Origin: Cyanophora paradoxa CCMP329 | Taxonomy: Eukaryota > Plantae > Glaucophyta | NCBI GenBank assembly: GCA_004431415.1 | Contig: QPMI01000457.1 | Span: 124,001 to 188,000, forward strand | Direction: 5' to 3' | DNA length: 64,000 nucleotides | Shown: positions 10,001 to 41,300 of the stretch, in pieces | How the letters are laid out: each line of letters starts with the position of its first letter | Numbering within the stretch: position 1 is the first letter of the stretch | Translations under genes and position numbers: made by a program | The notes under the pieces: generated by a model | Told to the model about the DNA's origin: nothing | Databases searched by the model: none | What the model saw: the letters and a program-made list of their open reading frames with translations, nothing else

Positions 10001-11191
10001 GGCCGTCTGGGTCGGCTACCAGCTGCACAGGAAGGGCGGGGCGGACCGCGGCGAGGGCGCCGAGGCCGCGTACGCGAGCGCGCGGGTCGTCCTCGCCGCC
10101 CTCGCCGACCTCCACACCAAGCTCGCCGACGGTGCGCCCCGCTGATCGATCGTGAATTCAAAGCGAATTCGAATTCGATCGGGGGCAGCGTGGTGGAGGA
10201 AGCACGGGAGCAAGCCGCGGCAGGACTTCCACCTGGGGCAGGCGCGGGAGGCGGACCCGGCGGCCTTCACCAACTTCCAGAAGATGAGCGACCGCTTCGA
10301 TGTCTACCGGGAGGCCCCCGCCGGGGCGCACGCCCTCCTCGAGGACCCCGCCGCCGTCGCCCGCGTGCGCCCGTCTGGCGCAGCCTCTCGCGTTAATTAA
10401 TCTGCGATTAATATCGGGGCGCCGGCGCCGCGGGCAGGTGTCGGCGCACCGCCCCAAGGCGGCGTTCTGCGGGGCGTGCAAGGCGGGCCCGCTGCAGATC
10501 AACGACCTCTACTCCTGTGCCGAGTGCCCCCCGCGGCCCGGAGTGTACCTCTGCACGAGGCGAGAGCTTCCCCGCCCTCCTTCAGCTCCCCCCCCCCTTC
10601 GCCCCCACCCCCCCCCCGTCGCCCCTTCCCCCCCCCCCCCCCCCTTCCGTTCCCCCTGTTGACGGTGCAGCAGCTGCTTTGGGGGCAAGCCGGACCACGC
10701 GGAGCACAAATTTGTGCGGGTGCGCGTCCCTCCCGCCCGCAACCGGCGCCTTCGCGCGCGTCCCGACGGCCTGGGGGCGGCAGGTCGCAGACGTGCCGCG
10801 GCAGGTGCCGCCCGCACCGAAGGAGGGCATGAAGGCGCGGCTGCTGCCCCTGCGCACACGCCCCTCCCCACACTCCCGTCGGCCCGGCGGGCCCTGACAT
10901 GCACGTGGGCCGGCGGCAGCTGTGCACGCGGTGCGAGGCGTGGTTCGACCCGGGGGCGGCGGCGGGCTGCGCCAGCCACTCGGCGTACTTCATGAACTCG
11001 CGGGGCTGGGTCTGCTGCACGTGCGCCAGCGCTATCTTCCTCTCAATATTTCCTTCCTTTACTGTATAATTTCACTATGCAGGAAGCAAGGGCGGGACGC
11101 GCCGGGGTGCCGGAAGGACAGCCACACGGACGCGGCGCGGAAGTGGCAGCAGGACCCGTCGTACGGCACCTACACCTACGTCCCCGCTTGA
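4048..11191 (+). CDS. Host DUF4062-NACHT(STAND NTPase)-TPR protein (NPHP3/TTC41-like) with C-terminal Cys-rich (ZZ-like) fingers; many introns
   Basis: DUF4062 motifs VRIFLSSTFR-DMQRERD and DLRWG..CLSELDRC..GQRYGW; Walker A GRSGLGKS (~6230-6255); Walker B LIVVDSLDQ (~6617-6645); TPR-like helices 8800-10100; CxxC motifs 10460-11020; stop at 11191 followed by AATAAA at 11201. Confidence 0.8.
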
Positions 11192-11327
11192 CGCGCTGCG
11201 AATAAAATTCCGTATCGGCCTTTATATTAGCATTTTGTCCGTCATGTGGTTACGTAGAAGCATGCGCAGTGCACGCGGTAAAATACGACACGATGCATTG
11301 GCCATGGCGACAGAGACAGAAATTCCG

Positions 11328-14300
11328 CTAGAAGCGCGAAGCGATATTAATATTGCTTCTTGGCTGTCTATCACGTATGCGCTTGCGAGTCCACCACCGC
11401 CGCATCAGAACGACGAGTCCCACTAACGACGGTAACAGAAGCAGGAGGCCGAAAGTGCCGAACATGAGTGCGCCCGGCAGTATTTCTCGGTGCAGTACGC
11501 GTAGCTGGCTGGAGGAATAGAAGATCCCAGAGCGATCCAATACAAGTGCGGAAAAAGACCCTAATACGAAAACGAATCCCCAGATAAACAGACCAACTGC
11601 ATCAAAGAAGGTTCTTTGATCGTTGTGCGCGTTATGCTGAAGTAGGATCCTCTGGGCGAGAGCGACTCTCATTTTGACAGGCAACAAATCCACGACAGAC
11701 ATTCTATTCGATTCAAAATCAAATCGAATACATTATTCAATCAATTGAATGGATTTACGAACCCCGCTAGAACAAGCAGCGCTAGCGCCCCGCACGCGAA
11801 GAACAAGCTTTGTCCGAACTTCGACTGAAATCGACAAGTCGTCCAGAACCATAACTTTGAGCTCGACGCCGACGTCGACGTATTCGTTTGCGAGAGCCTC
11901 TCGAGACTGGCATTGACCGCAGCATACGCAGCGGTTATGGCGGTTAAATTCGCTTTCGGGGACGCCGTTCGACTTATGTTCGCGAGCTCGGCTTGATATT
12001 GCTTAAGACCGTCGATGTACGCTGCTTGCGCGGCTTGGTTTCGCTTGATACCGTCAATGTAGGCAACAGCATCTGAAAAGCTCGAGTTTGGAGATGAATC
12101 CGCAACGCAGATCACCGGGCCGTAAAAAGCGTGAATGAAATGGTCTACGTCCAGATTGAGTGTGGTTGCGTTCAGGCTTACGGAGAGTATGTAATTCTCA
12201 TCCCCCGAGAACGGCTGACTCCAAGATGACAGGTGAATACCGATGTAGATACATACCCCGCCAAAGATGATGAAAAGCATAATTCGAAGAAAAAATGCCA
12301 CAATGCTAAACACTTTCCTTAGAGCTCGCCTTATCGCTTCACTAGCTGGCTGATTCTGTACGGGATGGTGAGCATATTTGCATGTGCAACATTTGAGGCT
12401 CTGGATCGGAATCGGCACTGGCGCTGCACCTGAGCCGGATGTTCTGTTCTGTGACAATAAAGAAATGAGCCGGCCGATCGCGACGTCGTGCACACAAGTA
12501 ACTGCGCTTGCCACGACTTGTCCAGCGCATTTGTCTAACGGAGCAATCGCCTTCAAATTAAATTATGAAGGTGATCGCGACTTGACTTTATAAAGTAAGC
12601 AAGCAATGGGGACACCGTCTCACACAATCGGAAATCCACGATAGGACTGTCGTAGTTCAGCGTTTCGATTCGGCGGAATTCTATATTCGAATCATCGAGG
12701 CCGTTCGGCGTCGATTGTCTCAATATGGAGACTTTCCCGTCTGTACTTCCGCAGCACAGTACGTGAAATCGCTTGTCTGCGCGAGTCTGGGCGCGCCGCT
12801 CGTGATGATCAGGAACAGAAGCTTTTGAATCACATGCAGATGTCAAACACAAAAGCTGCGCATACTTGAAGAAAAGCAGTGGAGAGCGTTGAGATGACGT
12901 TTGAATGCACCTCCATTGTCGAAATAAGCTTCTCATTTCTCCGGTTCCAGACGTACGCCTTGCCATCAGACGCCCCTGCGAAAACATGCGCCTGCGCGAA
13001 GTTTTATATTCTCCTCAGCCGTATCGCGATCGGCCTTCATCTTTTAATACTCGCACCTGCGACAAAGCTAAAGCAGTGCACCGGTTAAGCGCAGGAATCT
13101 GCATCTGATGGCGTTTCGTGGATTTTCCCGGTTTCTTCAAGTGCAGGCTCCTTGCATCGAAAATCAAGACCATGCCGTCGTCACATCCAACCGCAAATTG
13201 CGTCTCTCCCGCTTCCTGAGGCTAAGCATGTTAATGGTATTTGTTTTTGTCGATCGCAAATAATTATAAATATCACTGACGACTGCTGCAGCTGTCGCGG
13301 AGGACAGACAAAGTCGCTGTGCGACCACCCCCGACACGACATCAAATATTGCAATATCGCCATCCGACTGGAGGGCGATGGCGTGCATGCGCCTTTTCTA
13401 CAAATTTGCAGATCGAATGCAGATCGAACTTTAATAATGACAAACGACGTCCAGAATGCACACAGCACTTGCCTGCGGTTTGTCGTCCAGGAAAGCGATG
13501 TTTGAAATCTCGCTCGAAAAGATGGGGTAATCCGCGTCGCCTATCTCTGTCCCAGGAGCGCCGTCCACGTTGATGCATCGAACCGCGGCTCTTCCGGTGC
13601 TCGTCCCGCAAACCAGCATACCGCCAGACTGCCGGATCACGATCAATTATCTCCTGCTTGCAATTATCTCCACGTGCACACCCGTGCGCGCACCTCTGAC
13701 ACTGCGATGCAGCACATTTCACCGGATGTGCGCCCGATAAGAATTTCTGCCCACGCAATCGCACGCCCAGATCTCCAGGCGAAAACGCGATAGCCGTCGG
13801 CATCTCCCAAGACGACCGTTGAACCCGCCTGCAAAAGTTATGTATATTATACTAAGTTATAACTTATTACTTATGACGCATGCGGACACCCGTAAAAAAA
13901 CTCAGTCTTCACGGGACGGCCGAGCCAAAAATCCTCGGTAGTTTGATTGAGGTCAGAAAACTTACCTTAGGGTTGTGTCAACGCATATGAGAACACAGTG
14001 TGGCATAACGTAAATTACATCAGAATCACAAATTAAATTTTGACTTCAGATTTACAGTTATTTACCGCGCTTATTCTCGAAAATCTGCTGCGATAACGCC
14101 AGATCGACACATTACCCCAAGTGAAACTAAACTCAAAATGTCAGCACGTTAATTTAATTAAAAACCGCAATTTTAATTTTGCCCAGCCGCGCGCGGATCG
14201 AAATCGATCGATCGAAAACCGGTTCCAGTTTGGGTTTTAAAGAAATTTAATGCATGCCACATGGATTCGCAGTCGTAGTGCGCGCCTGTTGTAAAGGGGA

Positions 14301-17300
14301 GGACCCCCCCCCAAACCAGACCGCCCCCAAAGTCTGGTTTTACCTTCAGGGATCCACCCCTTCTAGCGTCATCAATTAACGATTTCCCTGAAAACAGTTA
14401 GACGTGCCAATTAGGCGTGTTGTTCGCTATATTACAGATTCATTGTTAGCTAGGCGTGTGCAAGTGTAGCTTTGGATCTGTTGCGGATATATTAAGTTAG
14501 GTTGCTTGAGGGCGCGATAGCTACTGGCCATGGGCCACACTTGCTTGTGCACGGTCTGGTTTGGCCTCAGGAGAGAGTGTCAGCTAGCTTGCGTAGCATT
14601 TGACTCACAAGAAACCTAGCTGATTTCCGAATCCATCGACGTCGACTGAAGCTAGCTTGCATAGCCTTTGGCTCACAAGAAACCTAGCTCTAGAAAATAC
14701 TCTCAGAAAGAGAAGTAAGCTTTCTTTTTCTGTAGACACTTAAGCGATCTTTGGCCTTCTTTATGAGTTCATCAACATTCTCGAGTTCTACTATTTCACC
14801 CTTGCACTCTTTCAGAAAGAGTTCAAAAAAGATCATATCTCTGTCTGAAACGTAATTCTTTTGGCCAGCCTGATAGAGCTTAATTTCCTGAACTTTCCTG
14901 GCATTTGTGAAAATGTAAACCTCTGCAGCCCGCCAGATACAATTGCTATATAACTGTGGCAAATATGGTTTGGTGCCTTTCATGCAGGCATTTTGGAGAA
15001 CATTTAGCGAGATATCGCCTTCAAACCTTGGTATGATGATAGTTCGCTCCCCGTTGTAGTTGTCCCAGAATCCAGGTCGGCCCTGTGGCCATGCTGTGTT
15101 AAAACCACGATGTTATGTAATTAACGTATACATTCCAGGCCTGCAAACCATGCCATCTCGCACGCAGTAGGTATTAGGAGGCAATGAGTTCAACAAAGTT
15201 TGGATGACAGGTTCAGGTGCTCCACCTGGGCAATGGTTACAGCGTGCACAAAATAGTGATAAGCGGTCAAACCTACGACAAAATAAATCGTCGTGTATGA
15301 GGACTTGTCCGGTGAGTACATGCAATATTTATACTGTTGATCCCTCTCGTCACGGAAATTGCCAACAGGAAACATCCTCTGGAACTCTGCAAATGACTTT
15401 CCACCTAGTCAACATCGTGATCAAGTTAGATGGAAGCACAGCACGTGGTTGCGAAAAGAACTACCATGGTACCTGCTAGAAAAGTTTTCATGCGTTGAAT
15501 AAATTGTACGTGGACTTGAGAACGACCTGGGTGGTCCAACTGTATACTGGTCGTTAATATGCACGCGCACATGGCAGGAATAGAGAATTAAAGTACCGTT
15601 CCAAATGCAAAATATCCGGGATGGGCGCAATTCACGTCAATATTCCGAAAGCAATCAAGAAAGTCCCGTTGTTGGCGTTCTTCGATTCGAAGTACAGTTG
15701 GGGCATGGCCCATAGCACGATAATCTTTGTCGCTGAATGCGCGTTCAAGCATCAACTTCATAAAATTCAGCGATTTCTTGTGGTACGTAGTAATGTATCC
15801 CTGTCGGGCGTTAATGGGGCCGGGGTGACGTCGGGCCACATGGATATAAATGAAACACGTTTAGGCAAACCTTGATGATGTACTGGTTCTCCTGGTCTGT
15901 ATAAAAAACCCGGAATTCAGCATACTTTACTTCCTCCTTGCATTGCCCGTTATTTTCGAATACTTTGCGAGTTGAGCGGAAGCATCGTCTCCAGACAGAT
16001 ATGTCGGCAGGCTCATCCCGCGTAAATTTCTCAAATGTGAAGAAGTGGCGTTTGCGTATGTTAGGATCATCCGAGCCATAGCCCTTAAGAGTAATGGTGT
16101 AAGGCATATATACTGTTGCAGGTTTGAGTTAGTGCACATACGCACACACATATATAAGATACCGAATTGGACACCTGTGCACGTGGGCGTCGATCGACGT
16201 CTAGCGTTTGCGAGTATGTGTGCACGTCGCCAGTGCCTGTGTAATGTATGTATATATCTGGTATACGTAGAACCAAAGCGATATCGTGAGCCACCATCAT
16301 GGCATCGGACGCACCGTATCGCAGGCGCTAGCTACTGGTACGCGGGCAGTAGCCTTGGTGGCCGGCGCCAGTGCTACTACCGAGAGCAGTCTCAGCGAGC
16401 TATGCGCGCTACTGCGGCTACTAGGCTAGCGCGGCACTACTAGGCTGCGGCACGCCCGCGCCTCGCGTGTACTACCGTAGTACGGTACTAGTTTACTCAG
16501 TGACCACGCTATCAAAGCCTATCATAGTATAGCCTGGTACTACGGTAGTAGCCTCAGTACGGTACTAGCCTGGTACCGGTATATAGCTACTAGGCTATCA
16601 TCAGCCTGACAGTAGCCTATCGGCGCGCGCGTCTCAGTCTATCATCGCATATCGCCGTCGATTCGCCGAGTCTACCGGGCTATCGCCGTACTACGGTAGT
16701 ATACTACTAGGCTAGCGCCATACAACCAAATCCGAGTCAAAATGTACGGCGAGTTCGAATTCTCGCCGCCGGACCGTCGCCGAGTCGGACCCGGGGCCTA
16801 GCCTAGGCCTACTGTAATTCGGGTAATATTTAAGGCGGCCCCGTGCCTAGCCTCGTGATAATTCGGTAATAACTACCGGTAGCCTCGTGGCACGTGCCCG
16901 GCGGCCCCGGCCACGGGTGCACAACCGTTGAACCGTTGAACTTTCGGAACTTCGCTGACGTACCGTCGGACCGTCCGACGGTCGGACTGAGCCTGACTCG
17001 CCGCGAGTCGGTGAGTCGGAGGCGCGCGTGGCCCGCGGACTGTAGCAGGGCATCGAATGCCCAGAGGTTGTTGAAAGAATATAAACCATATCAGGGCATC
17101 GAATGCCCAGAGGTTGTTGAAAGAATATCAGGGCATCGAATGCCCAGAGGTTGTTGAAAGAATATAAACCATATCAGGGGCATCGAATGCCTAGAATACT
17201 AAAGTTGCTTTTTATAACCTCTGGGCATTTGCAATTGCAATACCACAATCGCAACATTAATTTGTACAAAAGTTGATTTTAAACCCTTCCACAATCGCAA

Positions 17301-20300
17301 CATTAATTTGCACAAAAGTTGATTTTAAACCCTTGTCAATGCCTAGAATACTGAAGTTGATTTTTAAAACCTCTGGGCATGCGTAATATTACAACATTAC
17401 AATGTTTGCAATGTTTGCAATGTTGAAGATTTTGGACAGGAAGTTATAAAATTTATATAATAAATGGCGCCCGCAGACTATATAATGACTCTAATAATGG
17501 CGCCCCGGCGAGCGACTAAACAATTACATAATAAACCTTTAGCACTGAATTCCCCAACTTACGTCAATTCCCCAATTTACGTCAGTTCCCCAACTTACCG
17601 TACCGCAGCGGCACAGTTTGCAAACTGTTGATTGGCTAGATCGGCAAACCCTGAATTTGATTTTTGATTGGTCGCAACCGTTTCACTAAGCGATTCACGA
17701 AATATGTAACATGTATATGATATGTTTGGGGCCTGGCGATTCATGTTCAGGCCGGTACACGTACTAGGTTTTGATTGGTCGCAACCGTTTCACTAAGCGA
17801 TTCACGAAATATGTATATGATATGTTTGGGGCCTGGCGATTCATGTTCAGGTCGGTACCCGTACTAGGCTCGGCGAACACGAACCCTCACGATTCAAGTT
17901 CAAGCTGCGAAAAAACCAACTGGAAGAAAACAAAAAAACACGAAAAGTGAGTACAAAAACAACCAATCGCAAATGCCGGAGGTTTCACAGTCGCGGGCCA
18001 TGGGGCGCCGATTGCACTACTGCGCGGGCCTGCAAGGTAGAAGCCTAGATTGCATGGCTTAGAGGTTTCCTGCACTCTATCTAGCAGTCAGAGATTGTTG
18101 CGCTGAAATCCGAAATTAATTTCAGTCCCTCTTCTTGGAAGCGCATGCAATGGCCAGCACTGCAGCACTTAAGGCCGAACTTAGAAATTTAGCGACAGAA
18201 CTTTATGATCGTGGATATGTTCACGGGACATTTCGAAACAAACTGATGCGCCTGGCGGACGCTAGCAGCGGGACCTGGGGCCGAACGATTCGCAAATATA
18301 TAGCAACACTGCTGCGACTGCGGAGCACGATTCGCCCAGCACGCCGCTTATATGAAGGCCAGCTCGCAGGCCATTTTGGCGCAATTGCAGCAGCTCGCGC
18401 AAACGCGGTTCAGGCCGAGGAGGCGATACTGGAGGACGTACCTAATATATTCCAAGATGTTGAAGAAATTCCCGTGCCACGAGATCTGGATGGGGTGCTC
18501 TCTCACAGGCACCACCGCTATCCGAATTTACTATTCGATAAGCACGTATATGCAATCGAGCCCAGTTTCGATCCGGAGTCCGTAAAGAATTTAACGATTG
18601 ACATCCTCGGGCAGCTGGGCGTTGCGGAGATGATAGGGCGATTTGTGATAATCCGGTTCCGCTTTGACAATAATCACATGTATACGACCCAGCTAATTCA
18701 AATCAGACAGAACGGGTTGCAGACTTTGACTGAGAGTTTAGATGAGCGGATTGCGCAGTGGATGTCAGCGCAAATGTCATATCAGGAGGACGATATTTGG
18801 GTGGTAATATTGATCGAGGTGTTAATTGCAGACAACGCGGCTGGCGCCCTAGGCAATGTTCCGAAATTGCCATTTTATCATCGGACAGTCGATAAGCTAT
18901 ACTGCCCGATGTCCCCAGCGAATGACTGCGTGCTCGAATGCTTTGAGTACGTTAAATTAGATCCACGCGGACTGAGCCTGAAGACAGTAATCGAAAAGCT
19001 GGCGAAGGCACCCTATGCATCTATTCGAGAGCGGCTCGGACTGGGAAAGGGCATGATATCTCTTGATCGCAGCACAGTAGAAGCGATCTGCGGAATATAT
19101 TCGATAGATGCAACTGTGACGGAGTGGGCAAACACGAAATTCAAGGAGCTTTTTCGAACCCAGTTTGATTATTCGAAGCGTGCAATTCTCTGCAACATCG
19201 ATGGGCATTGCTACCTGATTAAAAAGGAGGCGACACTAGGTCTGGAGCGGTGCCCTTGCTGCGGAAAGATGTTTGATTTGGCAACGCATGTGGAGCAATG
19301 CACGTTCTGCAATAACTGCAAACGCGCGTACGACCCCAGAAAAGATCATTCATCAGAGTGCCAGGAGATGACGCGCCGTCAAAACGTGATCGGGCGGCAG
19401 ATCAAGCCCTGCAAACCGGAGACAGAATTTACAGCGTTGGACAGCGTTGTCTGCGCGGATTTTGAAACGTTTGCTGCCAACGGCAAGACGCACGTTCCAT
19501 ATGCTGTCAGCTATTGCATGATTGAAAAAGGGGAGGTCTCGCCATGCGAGCTAATTTATGGTGAGCAAACGTTGGACTTGTTCATGCGCTGGCTTGAGCG
19601 CCGCAGCGAGAAGACGACGTTGGTGTTCTACAATGGGTCTGGCTTTGACTATATATTTGTCTACAAATGGCTCGTGTTAAATCGACCGAATACAGCATTA
19701 AACGTTCTGCGGTCGAACGGCAAGATCAAGAATATGTCGTGGAAAACGGCTGCAGGCGGGCCTATAAGTACGTTTGATCCGTGCCTGCACATCCAGGCTT
19801 CGCTCAAACAGGCCTGCAAGGACTACGGCTGCACTAACGTAAAGGGAGATTTTGATCATAGCAAGATTAAAACGTGGGAGGACGTTGAGCGCTTTAAATC
19901 TGAATGGGAGCCGTACGTGGAAGACGACGTTAAGGCAATGACAGAGCTTTACATTAAATATTCGACAGCAGTCTTCGATCTGTACGGCTTAAACGTGAAC
20001 ACAACGCAAACAACCACAGCTTCGGCAATGGCGTTCCAGATTCATCGGCAGACGTTGATCAATCCAATTTCGCTACCGACCTACAAGGATGATCAGGTGC
20101 TGCGCCAGGCAATATATGGTGGACGGTGTCTCCCATTTAAACGCAAATTCGTCTCATCGGGCCCGGATGATTATTTAGTCGACCTGGATGTTGTAAGCTT
20201 GTATCCGACGGCTATGTACGAGAATTGGTTTCCAACTGGAAAGTACAAGCATATTACGTCGCCCGATGCGCTGGACAGATTCTGCAAGATATTACAATCG

Positions 20301-23300
20301 AATCAGCGTTCGTTGATGTTTATTGCGTGCGTGGACGTGACAATTCCGCAAAATCTGCTGCTCTCTCCGCTGCCACGGCACGAATCTAATCTAGGCTGGT
20401 CTAATCTCAAGCCAATTGAGCGCGGTTGGTATACGTCAGTCGATATTAATCGTGCAATTAAACTGGGATGCGAGGTGACGAAGGTGCGCGAGGTCTACCT
20501 GTTTGACGGTAAAGATCAGATGTTTAAGACCTACATGGAGCGGATGTACTGCCAGAAAGCTAGATCTCGCAAGGGAACAGCTCCGTATGCGACGTCAAAG
20601 ATTTACATGAATGGCCTTTACGGTAAATATTGCCAGCGGCCTGTGATCACAACCTCGGATCTGGTCACATCATACAAGCGATTTCGAGAAATTCAGCGAT
20701 CAGCGCAGATCACAGACATTTCGATCGAATCAGACACGCGGATGTTTGTCACGTACGAGATTGAGGAGTCCAAGCGTGATAGAGCTGTCACTAAACCGTG
20801 CTTTATTGGCGCATTTATTCTGTCATATTCGCGGGAGATCATGGACAGGTTTCTGATTGAAATAGGCGCATACTGGAGCATCGATGCAATGCCGTTTTAT
20901 ACTGATACGGACTCTTTGATTGTCCATCGAAAATACGCTGATCTGCTGCGGGCAAAAGGTTATATGAAGCCAGCATATGATATAGCGACGGCAACAGATG
21001 CGGACATTTGCAGGCAGGAACTAGGGAAACTTGACTGTGACATTAAAGGGCGGATTGTGGAAGCGTACTTCATTGGGCCGAAGCTTTATACGTGTTCATT
21101 TGTACGTGACAGCGACGCGCAGCTTGATCTGCATGTACGCGCAAAGGGGATTCCGCAATCGTGGATCCAGGAGCACTGGCTACCAGACGAACCAGAGGAG
21201 AGGAAAGGGGCCCTCGACCGCAGGATCGCTCTGGATGCTTACAGGTGCATGCTCGAGGATCCCACGTACCAACCCAAATGCACAATCGAATCAAAGCTGG
21301 CCCGTGTTTATAAACCGAACGGGCGGCAACGGGAGAGCGGAATCAGCTTTAGTTCCATGATCCAAATTCCGTTCGCTCGACAGCTGAACAAGTCGCAGTA
21401 TACAAAGCGCAAGATAATTTCGGACGAATACTATAGTAGCGTCCCCATGAGTACCGCGCAGGCGAGCCGAATTAAGCAAGCTTATTACGATCCGGAAACT
21501 GGCTTTCAGTCTGCGGCGAGGATAGCTAAGCGGCTCAATTTACCGCTATCAAGAGTGCAGGACGTACTTTCAAAATTGACGACTGCGCAGCGTTTTGCGA
21601 AACCTGTAAAGGAAAAGCCATCGACCAGCATAATTTACGGGGAGCCCGAAAAGTACTACGAAGTCGATCTGATTGATGTGACCCCGTACGCGAGAACTAA
21701 TCGAGGGATTACTTTTATTATGAACGGTATCGATGTGACGACGCGCAAAGCGTATAGCATCCCTATGAAGACGAAATCGGAAAGCACTCTGCTAGCCAGT
21801 TTGAAGAAATTGATTGATGCACTCCCCTCGAAGCCGGACGTCATTCAGACAGATCAGGAGTTCAAAGGAACCGCAGCAACAATGCTAGCGAGTATGGGCA
21901 TCAAGCATAATGCAGTGGAGGCGCATCGCCCGCAAGCAAACGGCAAAATAGAGAGATTTAATGGTACGCTTAAGCGCATCATTGCAAAGTACATGGATGC
22001 GTACGACACGGACAGATATATCGATAAGCTGCCTGCTTTCTTGCGCAATTATAATTCGTCAGAGCATAGGTCAATTGGTACGTCGCCGAACGCTGCAGCA
22101 GAAAATCCGAAGGAGACAATTGCACGCAACGACTACCAGAGAGAAGCGTACGAGCAACAGCACTATTTTGCCCAAGCGGAATTTAAGGTAGGCGATCGGG
22201 TGCGAGTGCAGCTAGAGCGGCAGCGTTTCGACAAGTCTTCAAAGCCGACGTATTCAAAAGAAATCTATACGATCACGGAGATAGGTGGCTTTGGACCGCT
22301 GCTCAAATTTACGCTTTCGGGCTACGACAAAGCGGTGACCTACCAGCGACTATTGAAAGTAGCGGCAGATTCAGAGGAACGTCGTGCGGGCAATGCAGCA
22401 CAGCGGGCACAGCAGCGCAGGAAGAAAGAGATTAATCTAATGCAAGAGAATCTAGACAAGAGTGATATAGAGAGAGCGCGCAAACTCGAGCGTTTGCAGA
22501 AGCAATTGTTGACTGCAGGTAAAGAGAAGCTGAACCCAGGAGGGGCAACACAGAGATGGTATTCGTCGTTCCAGAATAAAACTGCAGCGTACTCAGCCCC
22601 TGGCAATACGCGAACTCTCCGCCCACGCGCGTGAAAAAGAAAGTGAGCCATCTTGGCTTTCTCCTTCTTTCGCTCCCCTCTTTTTACTTATTGCCGGCCA
22701 TTAGAGAGCTATAACAATTGTTTGTTGGAGGGACTCTAGCAGTGCTAACTTTTCGTAGATTCGATTGCGATAGCGGCGATTGGCCTCCAGATGGCCCTCA
22801 CTGTTATTGCGTTGATATTTCAGACTGGCTTCGATGTGACGTCGCCGGTAATCAGGATCTTCATTGTACCTGCGCCGATGGCTCTCGGCTCGCTTGGCCT
22901 TCCGTGCCGCAGCGATTTCAGGGGTGACAACAATTGGCTTGCGGCCTGGGCGCTTTGGCGATGATTCGGCATCCATATTTGCGGGTTTCTCGTCACAAAC
23001 AAGGAGCGAAATAATTTTATGGCATCAATCGCAGAACGACCAACTGCGTTGGATTTCGAGAATTAAATCCGAGATATAATTAAAACAATGCCAGCAACGA
23101 TCCGATTCGGCAAGTATCGAGGGGAGACGCATCTGGAGGTTGTTTACAGGGATCCAAAATATGCAGAATGGTTAATTTCGTGGCCGCATTTGCGCCCATA
23201 CGATAAGCAAAAGCTTGAGCGTGCATTCGAAATGTGCCGCACAATAGAGGGCTCTGAGCTTAGGAAGATGATTGACTTCGCAAAGCAGCAGCGACGTCCT

Positions 23301-35300: not shown

Positions 35301-38300
35301 CTACTCACTGGGCTCCCCAGCCATCCATATGAGGCAGCATGAAGTTAGCGATGCTATTGCGGGATTAGAGTCCACTGAGCGTCCAAACTCAACTAATGCA
35401 TTTGATCAACGATCTGTGATTCGGTGTAAAGAATTGCGAGCAGATAAAAACTCTGGGGTTGTAAAAACAACGCGATTATTAGTCACTAATGCAAATTTTT
35501 CCCAGCCCATAACAGGGGGAGTTGATTCGTACAGTGTTGACCTCCGAAGCATAAACTATGATCAAAACACTGCTGCCCTCACTGTGCGCTCCGGGGGAGC
35601 AGCTATTACTGGAGCTTGCCGTGTTAGTGGAGGACTATCATCATCGATTGCCATCAATGATGTTCCAGACTTTTCATTAGAGAATGTCGAAAATCGTAAA
35701 CGAGTTCGAATGTACTTACCTTGCTGTGACCTCCCCTATGCACAAGCTCTAGTAGAAGTTGAGATAACCATAGCAAATTCAAGTACACCAAATGGTCTGG
35801 ATGGTGAGAGGCTGCTTTCAAACAGAGAAATACCGAAGGCGCTTCAATCACTCTGTCAGGATCAAAATGATCAGATAGGGCATGTGTATACGTTCTTTGT
35901 GCAAGGCCTTGGACACGCTGGACGTGGATACGTTGTTCGTAATATCAATTCAAGACATCTTTTTGATTTATATGCTACTGCTATAGGCAGATACTCTATC
36001 CTAATCATCGGCTATCGCTCCGATGTAGCTGCATCAGTGGCCACTAGAGGACTGAACCCTGATCCGGCACTGAATAATATGTATGAGGAAGGCAATCCGG
36101 AAAATCCTATACCTTAAGTGGAAAGTTTTATCTCCTGTTTTCTAAAATGGAAGCTGTTGAAAGAATTGTTGTTCCCTCTTTGACACTAGCAGCCCCAGCA
36201 AATCACGTCCTGCAGCATGCTGTCTCAGACGATGTCCCCGGCCTGCAATCAACTGAGCAGCAGCCAACTCTAAACACCTTCCGAGATAATCACATCATAC
36301 GTTTAGGAGAGGTTAGATGCGACAAAAATAATGGAGTGGTCAAAACAACAAATCTTGTCGTAACAAACGCAAACTTTAATGCGCATTATGGGGATCCTGA
36401 TAGCTATGATGATGCTAACAAGGTTCACACTTTTACCTATGAATCAAGATTAGGGGCTGTTACCTGCAGGTCCGGAGGTGCTTATATTGGAGATGGCCTG
36501 AGAGTGGGTGGAGCTGCTTGCGCCCCTATATTTGTAAATGATCAACCTAACCCTGAAAACACTAATGAAAGAATCAGAACGTATGTTCCCGGTATGAATT
36601 TGCCTTATATCATCAAAGTCTTCACGCTAAACATAAATGAGCAAACATCGATCGTAGATAACGTTCAGCCACTCGGAATCCATTTCAAGAGTGTTGTTGA
36701 TATTCCCCCGGATATCTACTTCCTTTGTAGGAGAAACGATGCTCTCCGGCCAAACATAGCTGTTTTAATTAATCCTATTGACAATTTTGGTGTCGCTTTC
36801 CATTCTACTCCAGTGGGGGTTGAAGATTACCAGTTTATTGTGAGGGCTACGCTTATGGGCGCCTACAAAATCATTCTATTTGCCGAAAGAACAGATGTGA
36901 TTGCAAATGGTGTCAAGTACGGGGAGACCTTCAATTCGAATCGTTATTTCCCGATTGGAGGGGCTGATCCCAACCCATAGAATCTTTGTTTTATATATAG
37001 CCCATACTAGATGGATTTGCTCCGTAAATGCATGGAGATGTTCCATCTCAACGTCACCAGCAAATTGAAATGCAGCTGCTGCGAGACAACTATTAACCTC
37101 GAAATATCTGACACTGAGGGGTCGCGCACCCCTGATACTCAGCTATCGCCTAATAACACACCCGGGACTTCAAGGTCCAATTCTCCTTTTACACGATCCG
37201 ACTCACCTGTACCATGGCTTGATTCTGATAACCGAAGATCGTCTTGGCCACCCCCAAATATCCCAAAGCCCCTGAAAAGAAAGAAGTCCCTGCTATCAAG
37301 TTTCAGAAAGGAGAAGCAACCAGCTGCAGATCAAGTGGAATGAGGCTGCGGCCTCTGAATCCGCACTATCAGCGCACTATCAGCGCACTATCAGCGCACT
37401 ATCAGCGCCAATCTTTTGTGTGTCACGTATCTCACCGTTTTCTCGCCACGTCACGTCACGTCACGGCGTCACGTCACGGCGTCCGCAAAGTTTTCTCGCG
37501 AACTTGACCCTCCGAATTAAAACAATTAAAACAAAAGAAAGGTGAGCTTCTGCAGCTGTTCAGCTGTGGTGCTCCAGCTGCATCAGCTCAAACCTGGAAA
37601 GCTCTGATTGCAGTGCTAGCTCTAGAATCGAAGAGATCCTGAGCAAGCACGAACTCCAGAAGTTGAGGCACAGACAAGCACAGGCAAGATACTCACAGAC
37701 ACCGCTAGGCAAAGAAACAAGGGTGCGCTCTGAGCAGAAAAGGAAGCAGAAGCTCTCACCTCAACGCCTAGCATCTAAAGCCATGTCTGATCTGTCAACA
37801 CCAAGAGACGGAATGCAAGTCGATTCCGTAGACCAACGAAACGCTGTTGCTGAGCGAGATCTACATAGCCTAAAGAGAAAGATCCAGCATCGCGAGAAAA
37901 AGGATCAAAAACGGCAAAAGCGACATGAATTCGGAGCTATGTGCAAGCAAATCACGGATCTAGCTTATCAGAAACTCCGAGGACTGGAGCAAATGAATCA
38001 GAGCATTACTGACATTATTGTTGCCTGCAAAGTACGTGCAATGTCTACCGATCCTAGGCCTGCTGCCTGGTAACGTTTCGTCAGGCCGCAATCGACAATC
38101 CGTTGTTTGACAGCACAAAGACTAAGAGCGTCCTTGATTCGCTGAAGACGAAACTGGAAGGATTTGACATTGACGAAGACGATGGGTTGGACAGCTGCAG
38201 TGATTCCGATGTCTAAAGTGGCAGCTGTCCACACTTAGCATAGGCTGTTCTCTTTATGTAGAAGTACACTTGCACACGCCTAGCTAACAATGAATCTGTA

Positions 38301-41300
38301 ATATAGCGAACAACACGTCTAATTGACACGTCTAACTGTTTTCAGGGAAATCGTTAATTGATGACGCTAGAAGGGGTGGATCCCTGAAGGTAAAACCAGA
38401 CTTTGGGGGCGGTCTGGTTTGGGGGGGGGTCCTCCCCTTTACAACACGCGCCAAATGCGTGCGGAGTCAACTGCGGACGCGATCGTAGTACTACGGTACG
38501 TGCACGTGCTCGCAAATGCAAATGATTGAGCCGATCGCGACGTCGCAATCGCGAGCCCGGGCCGCGACGTCGACTTTGACTAGGACTCTTTCAGTGAGCT
38601 GTCGGGCAACTTCTATAAAACAAATTAAATTAAAATCGAATCGATCCGATCGACGATCCGGTACCCCTCGGCCTTCGCCAGTACCAGACTACTACTACCA
38701 GTTCGATCCGATCGGACGTACCGGATTTTCCTTCACTCAGGTTGACGTGTCACAGTGTGTCACCGCGGGTACCGGTAGGCGGCGGTAGCGCCCGGCGCGC
38801 GGCCAAGCGCGCAGCGGCGCGCTGCGGGCCTGCGGCGCGCGCTGGCCGCGGGCCCGTGGCCGCCGCCACGCGGCGCCGTCGACGTCACGGCGTGGCGCGA
38901 GCCGCGCGACTGTCGCGTGAGTCGAGTTTTTCCCAGCAGTTTAAGCTGGCCAGTGGCGTGCATGGAAAGTGGCAGATAACGGAAGTAACGGAAAGTGGCG
39001 GACCCGAGATAATTATAACGGACGTTTCCGGAAAGTAACGGACAGCTTAAGTGGCGGATAGCGAAAAGTAACGGAAAGTAACCGAAACACACTGCAGTCC
39101 GACGGTCGACGTCTAGCTGCAGGCCCGCTGATCATGATTCGAATTCATGAGCAGCAGCAGCAGCGGTCGTTGCTGCAGTTGCGCTTATATTAGCAACCGC
39201 GTACATACTAGCGCTGCTGCGCATGCTTGTGCAGACGGAGCACTGCGGCGCATCAGCAGGTGAATTCGAAGTCAACGCAGCGATTGCGATCGCGAAAGCA
39301 GTGATCCTGATTTTGTCGAAGCCGCTGCTTATAAGCACCCGCTCCGGATCGTGAAGTGCCCGGCGGCCGCGAAGATTATTCGAATTCTTTTGTCCTGAAA
39401 AAGTCCGTCGTTCTGGCAAACTGCGCAAGATTCGAAATATATAATAGCTAATTGGAACAGTTCCGATCTATCGCTAGATCTTATAGCTCCGCTTCCGAAG
39501 CTCAAGATCTGAGAGTCTAGATCGAGGTCGGCGCGGCCGACTCGACGCGTATGGCGCTGACGTCAACGCTGCGCGTTTCTCGATTGAAGTTCAGCTGCAG
39601 ATCTAGATCTACGTATACATGCTTCGAATTCCAGATCGCGAAAAAATTCATTTCTGCATGTAAGTTTCTTTCGAATTCGCGTGCGATCGCTATAGCTATG
39701 TCCGACGGTCATGATATCGATCATCAGTTAATGGGGGGGTGCGGGGGGGCTTGCCCCCCTGCTTGTATCAGGAGCCGATGAAGTGCAAACGTAGGTGTCT
39801 TTAATTGTATTTTATCGATTGCATGCGCACGCTTGTAACGGCGAATAATGGGCGAGGCCGCGAAAGAACACATTGAACAGGACGTCCGCGCAAAAGAGAT
39901 CGATGTCCATGTGCTCGAGGGAACTTTGCGTCTTCTATATTAACCGGCCAGATCTTCAGTTTAACATCCGGATCCTTCGATAGAACAAACGCTTGACGCG
40001 ATCCAGCATGCAGCTGCGCATCTTATTTAAACCGCGCTTTTAAAAGAGCATTCTGATTTAAATTCATTAAATAATTTATAATTACGTCAACGTTCTACCT
40101 TACCTCGTTTTCGTTAGCGATCTCGAGAAGTTGAGCTCGATTAGGAGACAGTTTATGGTACTTTGTGGCAAACCCCTGAAAACATGCAGCCTCCGCGAAC
40201 AGAGCCATGTCAGACGTCGACTCCCTTGCCCATACACGACACGTTTGGTCTTCGGAAGCTGAAAGAAAGCTATTGCCATCCTGCAATAAAACGGTTTCAA
40301 TTCTACTAAAACATGAAAGGCATTATTGGGGAAGGGAAAATCACTTCCCCTGTCCCTGTCCCTCGGGCCCAACCCTACCCCAAATCCCATTTCCCCGACC
40401 TCCGCAAAACCCGGGCCGCGCGGTACATGCTGAAAGCCCATCCCCAGGGGACCCCGAAACCGTGTCTCCCGGTCCCGTCCGACCAAAGGGTGATCCAGGA
40501 ACAGGCACCAACACCCGGGACAAAAAGGGGTCCAGCGAGGCACATGGAGCAGATATACGGGCCGGACCAGTTCGAGGTCAATGCTTGCATTATGCCCGAC
40601 ATTCCGTACTGCAAGAGCGAGGCCGGGCGCGAGCGCGGTCGCGTAGGAGGACGCCGCGCGTGCTAGCCAATCGCATTGGAGAGTGCGAACTTACCCTGCG
40701 GAAAGTCTTTTTGCGGTACCCGCACGATCTCCTGCGTTCGCTGCAATGAGCCTCCCACGCTCCGGCCGCCCGAGCGGCAGCGGCGGCGCGAAGCCACCGC
40801 CGGGCATCGCCATCGGAGTCGATATCGAGCCGGCCAGCAAGCCCTGCAGTCAGCCAGGCTGCGGCGGATCTAGGCAGAAGTACGGCGGCAAGTGCCTGCA
40901 CTGCGGCCAGCACTTCTGCACGAGGGACGCGCTTTACAGTCATGTGCTGCGATGTAGACATCCGGCGGCAAGCAGCGCAGCCGTGAAAACCCGGGCAGCT
41001 GGCGCCCATGGCCACGCGTTCAGCGAGCGGCCTGAGTGCGGGGACTGTCAGCAGAAGAGCAAAGCCACCGGCAGCAAAGACGTGTGGGGCTGTGACCTCT
41101 GCGCTGCCCACTTCGTGCGCTTCGGCCCGGCGAAGGTGGTGGCACACCACGCAACTGCATCCTGTGAAAAGAACCGCTTACGTGGTACGCGGTCATTATG
41201 CTTTCGAAGCGTTCGAAACTTACCTTTTCGCTACGTGTATACGCTGTCGCAGATGAGCCGGAGCTGCAGAGCATCGCTGCGCGCGCGGAAGCCGCGCGCG

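Follow-up and report, generated by a model that had tools for sequence, protein, structure and literature searches.

A 64,000-nt stretch of the Cyanophora paradoxa CCMP329 genome assembly (contig QPMI01000457.1, positions 124,001 to 188,000; here called the window, and numbered from its first nucleotide) contains an integrated Polinton-like virus (PLV), and the gene adjoining the left terminal inverted repeat (TIR) of this element is homologous in its helicase half to the replication initiators (Reps) encoded by CRESS DNA viruses (circular, Rep-encoding and single-stranded). The Rep-like gene occupies 14690-16107 on the reverse strand, and has lost the Walker A and B motifs and the arginine finger of the Rep helicase. 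We propose that the element carries a Rep gene originating from a circovirus-like single-stranded DNA (ssDNA) virus; its six exons are predicted to be joined by splicing, and its ATPase motifs have been replaced. The original prediction, made from the sequence alone, had recognised fragmented open reading frames and a series of landmark peptides in this interval, and both are present as described. In all four DNA sequencing runs, three of them flagged as possible sources of the assembly itself, one short-read contig covers the entire gene with no differences and no gaps; therefore the frame breaks within it are real, rather than errors of assembly.

The similarity to CRESS Reps is clearest in the last exon, exon 6, which four methods support as being helicase-like. 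When compared with the PDB, it matched just two sequences at E <= 10, both of which were circovirus Reps (E 0.29 and 0.69). It also matched the Rep of L001, a 1.86-kb contig encoding Rep and Cap, with a pairwise E of 3e-9 and 36% identity over 59 residues; alignment to a set of 20 Reps using hhalign gave a probability of 81% and an E of 1e-5; and its nearest clusters in the ESM Atlas were Cressdnaviricota, with scores of 0.92-0.93. These matches support the earlier proposal that a CRESS-type Rep gene has been captured. Over the whole gene, spliced end-to-end alignment with two overlapping profiles outscored every one of 150 shuffles and every one of 80 other stretches of sequence. Profile comparison of the spliced product with the HUH nuclease and SF3 helicase domains of Reps found similarity to both, clear in the helicase and modest in the N-terminal HUH domain. 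Pfam returned nothing relevant for the exon pieces, the gene being too diverged for detection in this way. Matches in the PDB to exons 2-3 read through intron 2 were ascribed to chance, as was a match to a phage contig (L002), which was dropped; an AlphaFold model of exon 6 calculated without an alignment had a pLDDT of 41 and was not used.

A signature that precedes Walker B, composed of FWD-Y-GE and DG, is common to the Rep-like protein and 50 of the 75 CRESS Reps that formed our reference set, and the DNA-contacting Trp and the motif C Asn are also kept. The Walker A, Walker B and arginine finger (RR) patterns, found in 74, 75 and 74 of these 75 Reps respectively, are all absent. The original prediction was hence correct in describing both Walker motifs as replaced, to which the loss of the arginine finger can be added. 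The roles of the helicase and nuclease residues of Reps are described in PMC8780604; judged by its residues, the helicase of the Rep-like protein is dead. The first nuclease-like region lacks the His and Gln of motif II.

Predicted splicing of the Rep-like gene

The best model consists of six exons and five predicted introns of 47-70 nt, yielding a product of 369 aa. Its parts, in the direction of transcription and all on the reverse strand, are as follows:

16113..16174, putative sixth intron (62 nt, with CTAAC) upstream of the ATG, lying in the 5' untranslated region, or coding if the donor is at 16182
15871..16107, exon 1: beginning of the first HUH-like region, with FFTF resembling motif I and with His and Gln of motif II replaced, from the codon model and profile
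15801..15870, intron 1 (70 nt, GTTTGC...TAAC...CAG), from the TAAC spacing and a profile match across the junction
15597..15800, exon 2: remainder of the first HUH-like region, then the beginning of the middle region under dispute (hhalign E 0.005, from a single pair)
15540..15596, intron 2 (57 nt), from the TAAC spacing; an acceptor at 15547 is less likely
15473..15539, exon 3: H-V-Q, with codons starting at 15512 and 15506; frame undecided by the codon model
15405..15472, intron 3 (68 nt), with the branch-type motif CTAAC
15273..15404, exon 4: lacks the motif III Lys but has Tyr-Cys (codon at 15327); also encodes the first helicase strand
15226..15272, intron 4 (47 nt), on the path of TAAC introns
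15149..15225, exon 5: degenerate Walker A (no GK)
15083..15148, intron 5 (66 nt); alternative donor at 15163, alternative intron 15194-15094
14690..15082, exon 6: remnant of an SF3 helicase, with PR in place of the Walker B DD, FWD and the motif C Asn retained and the arginine finger lost, followed by a helical tail

That short GT-AG introns can join the frames had been put forward as evidence of splicing. Opening the frame takes at least four introns, and 614,385 open models are possible; an open GT-AG path also exists in 288 of 400 shuffles, and therefore such a path alone is at the level of chance. The evidence lies instead in a branch-type motif. There are 29 usable acceptors, six of which have TAAC 8-22 nt upstream and are enough alone to open the frame; a path limited to TAAC introns is present in the real sequence, and in none of the 400 shuffles for any of eight TNAY motifs. 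In total, seven TAAC-type acceptors occur in 1.1 kb, against 0.97 expected from the remainder of the element, and the seventh, being upstream of the ATG, is independent of stop codons. In intron-like stretches of the host, CTGA (21 vs 2) and CTAA (7 vs 0) are enriched before AG.

A codon-phase model, built from 12 other genes of the element and run with the intron 5 donor at 15163, favours the frame of the model in five of the six exons, exon 3 being a tie (-2.0 vs -1.5). The profile match spans the junction of intron 1, which upholds this intron as first called. For intron 2, the donor at 15596 stands, but the acceptor originally placed at 15547 lacks the TAAC spacing and 15540 is likelier, therefore putting exon 3 into a different frame; acceptor positions in the model are in general firmer than donor positions. 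The predicted introns have the features of the spliceosomal (U2) type, namely a GT donor, a branch motif, a YAG acceptor and a frame that is open after their removal, such that the branch-motif tests support the suggestion that the gene acquired introns, insofar as splicing is predicted. The exons have the base composition of the element (GC 0.43; GC at third codon positions, GC3, 0.47), from which the GC-rich host genes differ. An introner origin was rejected, as there was no clearly similar pair of introns (lowest p 0.035 of 15 pairs). Four runs taken as RNA gave no contig over the Rep-like gene and short, scattered matches elsewhere in 11000-30500, which counts neither way.

It is very improbable that there is no real gene here, and that a decayed Rep fragment has been fitted with spurious introns. 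The frequency of open GT-AG paths in shuffled sequence, and the confinement of the clear database signal to the last exon, would be in keeping with such a fragment, but the complete absence of branch-motif paths from the shuffles, the codon-phase signal, the profile match across the first junction and the intron candidate upstream of the ATG all argue for a gene. The Rep-like protein was probably under selection whilst it diverged, since 369 codons are open with intact splice signals at an identity of 15-29% to the nearest Reps found. Introns need host nuclear transcription; with five predicted introns of the spliceosomal type, the gene would require host RNA polymerase II and the spliceosome, which points with little doubt to a nuclear or integrated phase, and not to a cytoplasmic factory of the giant virus kind.

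The middle region and the adjacent repeats

The middle region of the protein (residues ~114-205) can be read either as a second HUH domain, or as the motif III and oligomerisation domain of an ordinary Rep. Read as HUH, it retains His, Gln and Tyr, spaced as in Reps, whilst the conserved Thr, Glu and Lys are gone. Its score against the HUH profile is reached by 5 and 1 per 1000 shuffles. With a profile running from strand 2 to motif III, the figures are 1 and 0 of 600 shuffles, compared with 105 and 65 of 600 for motif III plus the oligomerisation domain; taken family-wise over 63 Reps, they are 2-4 of 300 for the HUH reading and 23-33 of 300 for the oligomerisation reading. The spacing pattern, which like the segments compared was picked after looking, is present here as it is in 56 of 75 Reps, and occurs in 0 of 20000 shuffles; none of 72 middle segments from real Reps reaches the HUH score of this region. 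A profile with two HUH domains fits ~20 bits better than the ordinary Rep layout.

On the other side, P0005 and P0004, the Reps that are closest in the helicase, align the region nearly gap-free and collinearly as motif III and oligomerisation domain, with a pairwise z of 4.0-5.6 for P0005, and this reading needs no domain duplication; the match to the oligomerisation profile is not significant. No direct similarity was detected between the two putative HUH regions, and the fit of the middle region shows no significant concordance with closeness in the helicase for either reading (rho 0.20, p 0.13; rho -0.06). The two readings appear close to balanced, with a slight lean towards tandem HUH domains.

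Under either alignment, the canonical set of Thr, His, Gln, Glu, Tyr and Lys is incomplete, and the protein in all probability has no nicking activity: a complete nuclease site (motif I Thr, HUQ, Glu and YxxK) occurs in neither region, and the Glu ligand and the Lys of YCxK, present in all 56 Reps having the spacing pattern, are both replaced. The original statement that all HUH histidines were replaced is true of the first nuclease-like region; exon 3, however, encodes H-V-Q in its corrected frame, with Tyr-Cys 39 residues further on. The description of the protein as catalytically dead likewise stands for the helicase; for the nuclease it is likely to be right, but one alignment keeps His, Gln and Tyr in the middle of the protein.

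The Rep-like gene is arranged head-to-head with a gene encoding a protein-primed DNA polymerase B (pPolB) fused to an integrase, the two being separated by 1.9 kb of direct repeats (18-107 nt) and hairpins:

14582..14689, two direct repeats of 40 nt that closely follow the stop codon of the Rep-like gene, with diverged versions in sibling elements
16200..18075, non-coding region rich in repeats and hairpins, which separates the Rep-like gene from the divergent pPolB-integrase gene and, like the former, is single-copy

Rfam has no match to 16200-18075. Two DNA runs show a contig of another locus joining short repeat pieces of 16493-16969, hence some of these motifs occur elsewhere in the genome. 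No open reading frame of at least 100 aa starting with ATG lies in 16108-18149, and no capsid gene was found beside the Rep-like gene; nor was a stem-loop origin found there. Thus neither the capsid gene nor the nonanucleotide-bearing stem-loop by which an endogenous CRESS virus genome would be recognised accompanies it. A nonamer-like TAATATTAC at 17384-17392 was rejected as a Rep origin, as it lies outside any predicted hairpin loop. The palindromic GTAATATTAC at 17383-17392 contains this geminivirus-type nonamer, probably by chance.

These repeats would provide substrates if the second HUH domain were a working nuclease: a dead first domain would read DNA whilst the second, at residues ~114-205, nicked the repeat hairpins, making of the gene and the repeats a selfish or recombinogenic cassette at a Replitron-like stage with a decaying helicase. 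The profile, family-wise and pattern tests that favour the HUH fit would suit this, as would the nearby hairpins, the single-copy position of the cassette between shared flanks (see below) and the example of the Replitrons, which have introns, an HUQ signature and no helicase (PMC10288648). With Thr of motif I, the Glu ligand and Lys of motif III all replaced, nicking by a tandem-HUH protein is nevertheless unlikely; furthermore, P0005 and P0004 dispense with a duplication, the pattern and segments were chosen post hoc, there is a single copy, and no terminal direct repeats of the cassette were seen, its exact ends being uncertain. Similarly improbable is the full three-way chimera, in which a Rep with a duplicated nuclease has lost its oligomerisation and helicase functions, gained five or six introns and become an exchangeable end module of a PLV, one head being dead and reading DNA whilst the other still nicks nearby hairpins. 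If true, CRESS viruses and Replitron-like HUH transposons would be linked by a living intermediate, and the gene would imply that PLVs keep a spliced, host-transcribed set of nuclear genes at their ends.

The integrated element and its variable left end

The carrier was originally described as a double-stranded DNA (dsDNA) PLV, and this is borne out by its TIRs, target duplication, integrase, pPolB, packaging ATPase and capsid-like gene. Its features outside the Rep-like gene include:

14287..38446, integrated PLV of 24,160 bp, delimited by TIRs, target duplication and GC shift
14287..14468, left TIR, with its partner at 38265-38446
18150..22634, forward strand, pPolB fused to an rve integrase, 1494 aa (Pfam DNA_pol_B_2 E 5e-50, rve_3 E 1e-7)
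23974..24717, reverse strand, A32-like packaging ATPase (Pfam Pox_A32 E 2e-9)
24780..26167, reverse strand, probable major capsid protein gene, judged by its size, placement and PLV context, the frame of which is broken near 25816
37783..38216, forward strand, right-end gene with a candidate 53-nt intron (38032-38084), in phase and of the same type as those of the Rep-like gene

The element is bounded by an inverted repeat pair of 187 nt, the arms of which are 98% complementary, and flanked by a 6-bp target duplication, CGCGCC, at 14281-14286 and 38447-38452. Its GC content is ~0.39-0.55, compared with up to 0.79 in host DNA further away. Host DNA at 11000-14280 and 38453-41000 is also low in GC (~0.5), and the insertion site may be an AT-richer island of the host; two intronless membrane-protein-like open reading frames are found in the left flank, at 11328-12280. 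The polymerase and integrase form a single open frame, with a Cys-rich stretch preceding the exonuclease domain. The probable capsid gene had no match in a Pfam search; EukProt contains an unbroken 456-aa relative (P0077, 60% identity). The element also encodes a patatin-like lipase and C1q-type fibre-like proteins (Pfam). Five long fibre-like genes form an array at 29618-36980 on the forward strand, with PTR repeats, C1q-like ends and a common N-terminal motif, and the 1057-aa protein of this region has an acidic His/Trp repeat. Scans with the ATPase and capsid sequences found no relatives of the element. In each of the four RNA-type runs there is a contig of 1.3-1.9 kb, at a depth of ~40, containing a 134-nt stretch 94% like the TIR (14286-14419); this represents a related TIR piece within a locus elsewhere, which is probably transcribed.

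The Rep-like gene had been thought the only intron-bearing gene of the element, which is doubtful in view of the right-end gene. Here, the region 37546-38216 has an open frame of 175 codons with its first ATG at 37783, and the candidate intron at 38032-38084 joins two frames and would add an acidic tail. About nine similar single-intron candidates exist elsewhere, several of them opposite known genes, and there is about an even chance that this one, too, arose by chance. The genes at the two ends both point outward to the TIRs, and both may be spliced.

The contig bearing the Rep-like gene has the lowest depth, which is flat, and no variants. The start of the polymerase gene has ~5x this depth and occurs in a second variant; several variants, 86-90% alike, were seen for the sequence that closely follows the stop codon of the Rep-like gene. 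Contig depth being only a rough guide to sibling number, this suggests that ~six sibling elements share both flanks, and that they contain nothing 80% alike to the region ~14684-18075. Lying at single depth between shared flanks, the Rep-like gene and the 1.9 kb of upstream repeats therefore constitute a variable cassette at the left end.

Such a cassette could be a silent passenger, once functional in another setting, either a different PLV subfamily or an endogenous Rep domesticated by the host, then brought in along with the left-end module and no longer used. This is unlikely, although the absence of the cassette from near-identical siblings, the broken capsid gene of this copy and the failure to find relatives in the libraries, candidates and metagenome contigs searched would all be consistent with it. 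All five introns keep their donor, TAAC and acceptor, the reading frame is open throughout, and the element-like base composition is unlike that of GC-rich host genes. The gene may, all the same, have lost its function recently.

Possible function and comparison with known systems

Inactivated HUH domains act as DNA readers in the initiators of polyoma- and papillomaviruses. We tentatively favour, at a little under an even chance, an analogous role for the Rep-like protein, as a regulator that binds DNA without catalysis and controls latency or early expression. Our guess is that it would bind the adjacent repeats, in the promoter region shared with the pPolB-integrase gene, and so tune latency, early transcription or replication. 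We rank this first, followed by the silent passenger, then by a dominant negative acting against CRESS viruses (discussed below) and an active tandem nickase, which are level, and lastly by the absence of a gene.

Several results weigh against this interpretation of the gene. Local alignment to Rep profiles retains just 25 residues around Walker B; the N-terminal HUH match is equalled by 22 and 9 per 1000 shuffles (E 2e-4 to 4e-4 in one comparison), and exon 1 alone has no relevant match, including in the ESM Atlas. The TAAC motif was picked after looking, and the wider motif T[AG]A[CT] is not significantly enriched (10 vs 6.3, P 0.11). Relatives of the last exon were absent from 1.84 billion representative sequences (0 matches), from 133 candidates and from metagenome contigs. 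As the 3.4-kb cassette is missing at 80% identity from the ~six siblings, it is not a core gene. The frame break near 25816 in the capsid gene, whether real decay or a long-read error, may mean that this copy is inactive, and the middle region could be a nuclease that is still intact in part.

The alternative of a dominant-negative defence holds that the dead Rep enters the hexamers, or blocks the origins, of co-infecting CRESS viruses, shielding the host cell and the provirus. A full-length Rep layout with dead catalytic sites would be suited to this, the variable terminal slot is as expected for a defence gene, and splicing implies expression in the nucleus, where CRESS Reps work. An identity of 15-29% to the nearest Reps, together with an oligomerisation domain that is not significantly matched and possibly absent, makes it weaker than the regulator idea, and we know of no CRESS virus of this host; we consider it improbable. 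The same idea has been raised for the avipoxvirus Reps (apvReps; PMC10193959).

The capture itself extends the acquisition of Reps by dsDNA viruses from the poxviruses, herpesviruses and adenoviruses of animals to a PLV of a probable protist, and implies that a circovirus-like lineage was formerly in the same host. Part of the PLV programme may use host nuclear transcription, which bears on the latency and reactivation of integrated PLVs. Several spliceosomal introns in a PLV gene would also mean that such genes are overlooked by the intron-blind gene callers that are standard in PLV surveys; one large survey treated the elements as free of introns save in one species (PMC10120064).

Both poxviruses and herpesviruses have captured Reps that are dead. 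In the literature listings and main-text passages searched, we encountered neither a CRESS Rep in a PLV, nor a captured Rep with several introns, nor tandem HUH domains in one Rep (searches included PMC10120064, PMC12220804, 10.64898/2026.10.13.758929, PMC11296320, PMC11071296 and PMC10748475). In nematode Polintons, the domain reported is HNH and not HUH. In its size range (15-30 kb), TIRs, pPolB, rve integrase, A32 ATPase and capsid genes, the element is like the endogenous PLVs and Maverick-Polintons of protists (PMC10120064). Introners have been reported in dinoflagellate PLVs (PMC12166617), whereas the introns of the Rep-like gene are not copies of one another. The mriyaviruses also have HUH proteins in a dsDNA virus, duplicated in gamadviruses, but these are predicted to be active, are encoded by separate genes, are nearest to a rudivirus protein and replace the polymerase (10.1101/2024.02.29.582850), whilst pPolB is present here.

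The order of motifs is shared with the Reps of unclassified circovirus-like Cressdnaviricota (L001, P0001-P0060 and the porcine circovirus Rep structures 7lar and 8xms), from which the Rep-like protein differs in the degeneracy of all its catalytic motifs and in its insertions or duplicated nuclease domain. Replitrons are similar in being nuclear, intron-containing, CRESS-related HUH genes with an HUQ signature and hairpins nearby, but possess an intact Y1 nuclease and terminal direct repeats, lack a helicase and occur in many copies (PMC10288648); the Rep-like gene has a helicase remnant, lacks the motif III Lys and is found once, inside a PLV. Human herpesvirus 6 (HHV-6) U94 and fowl adenovirus ORF12 are likewise ssDNA virus Reps co-opted by nuclear dsDNA viruses, and U94, the nuclease of which is dead, functions in latency (PMC10193959, PMC11071296); both, however, are of parvovirus origin, and U94 keeps Walker A and B. 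Together with U94, the closest parallels in kind are the apvReps, CRESS Reps captured by a dsDNA virus with an inactivated HUH motif, for which a non-enzymatic or dominant-negative role has been proposed. The apvReps differ in belonging to cytoplasmic poxviruses, in their demonstrated expression and purifying selection, and in that several keep Walker A and B (PMC10193959), whereas the Rep-like gene described here is carried by a PLV, and has a dead helicase and five predicted introns.

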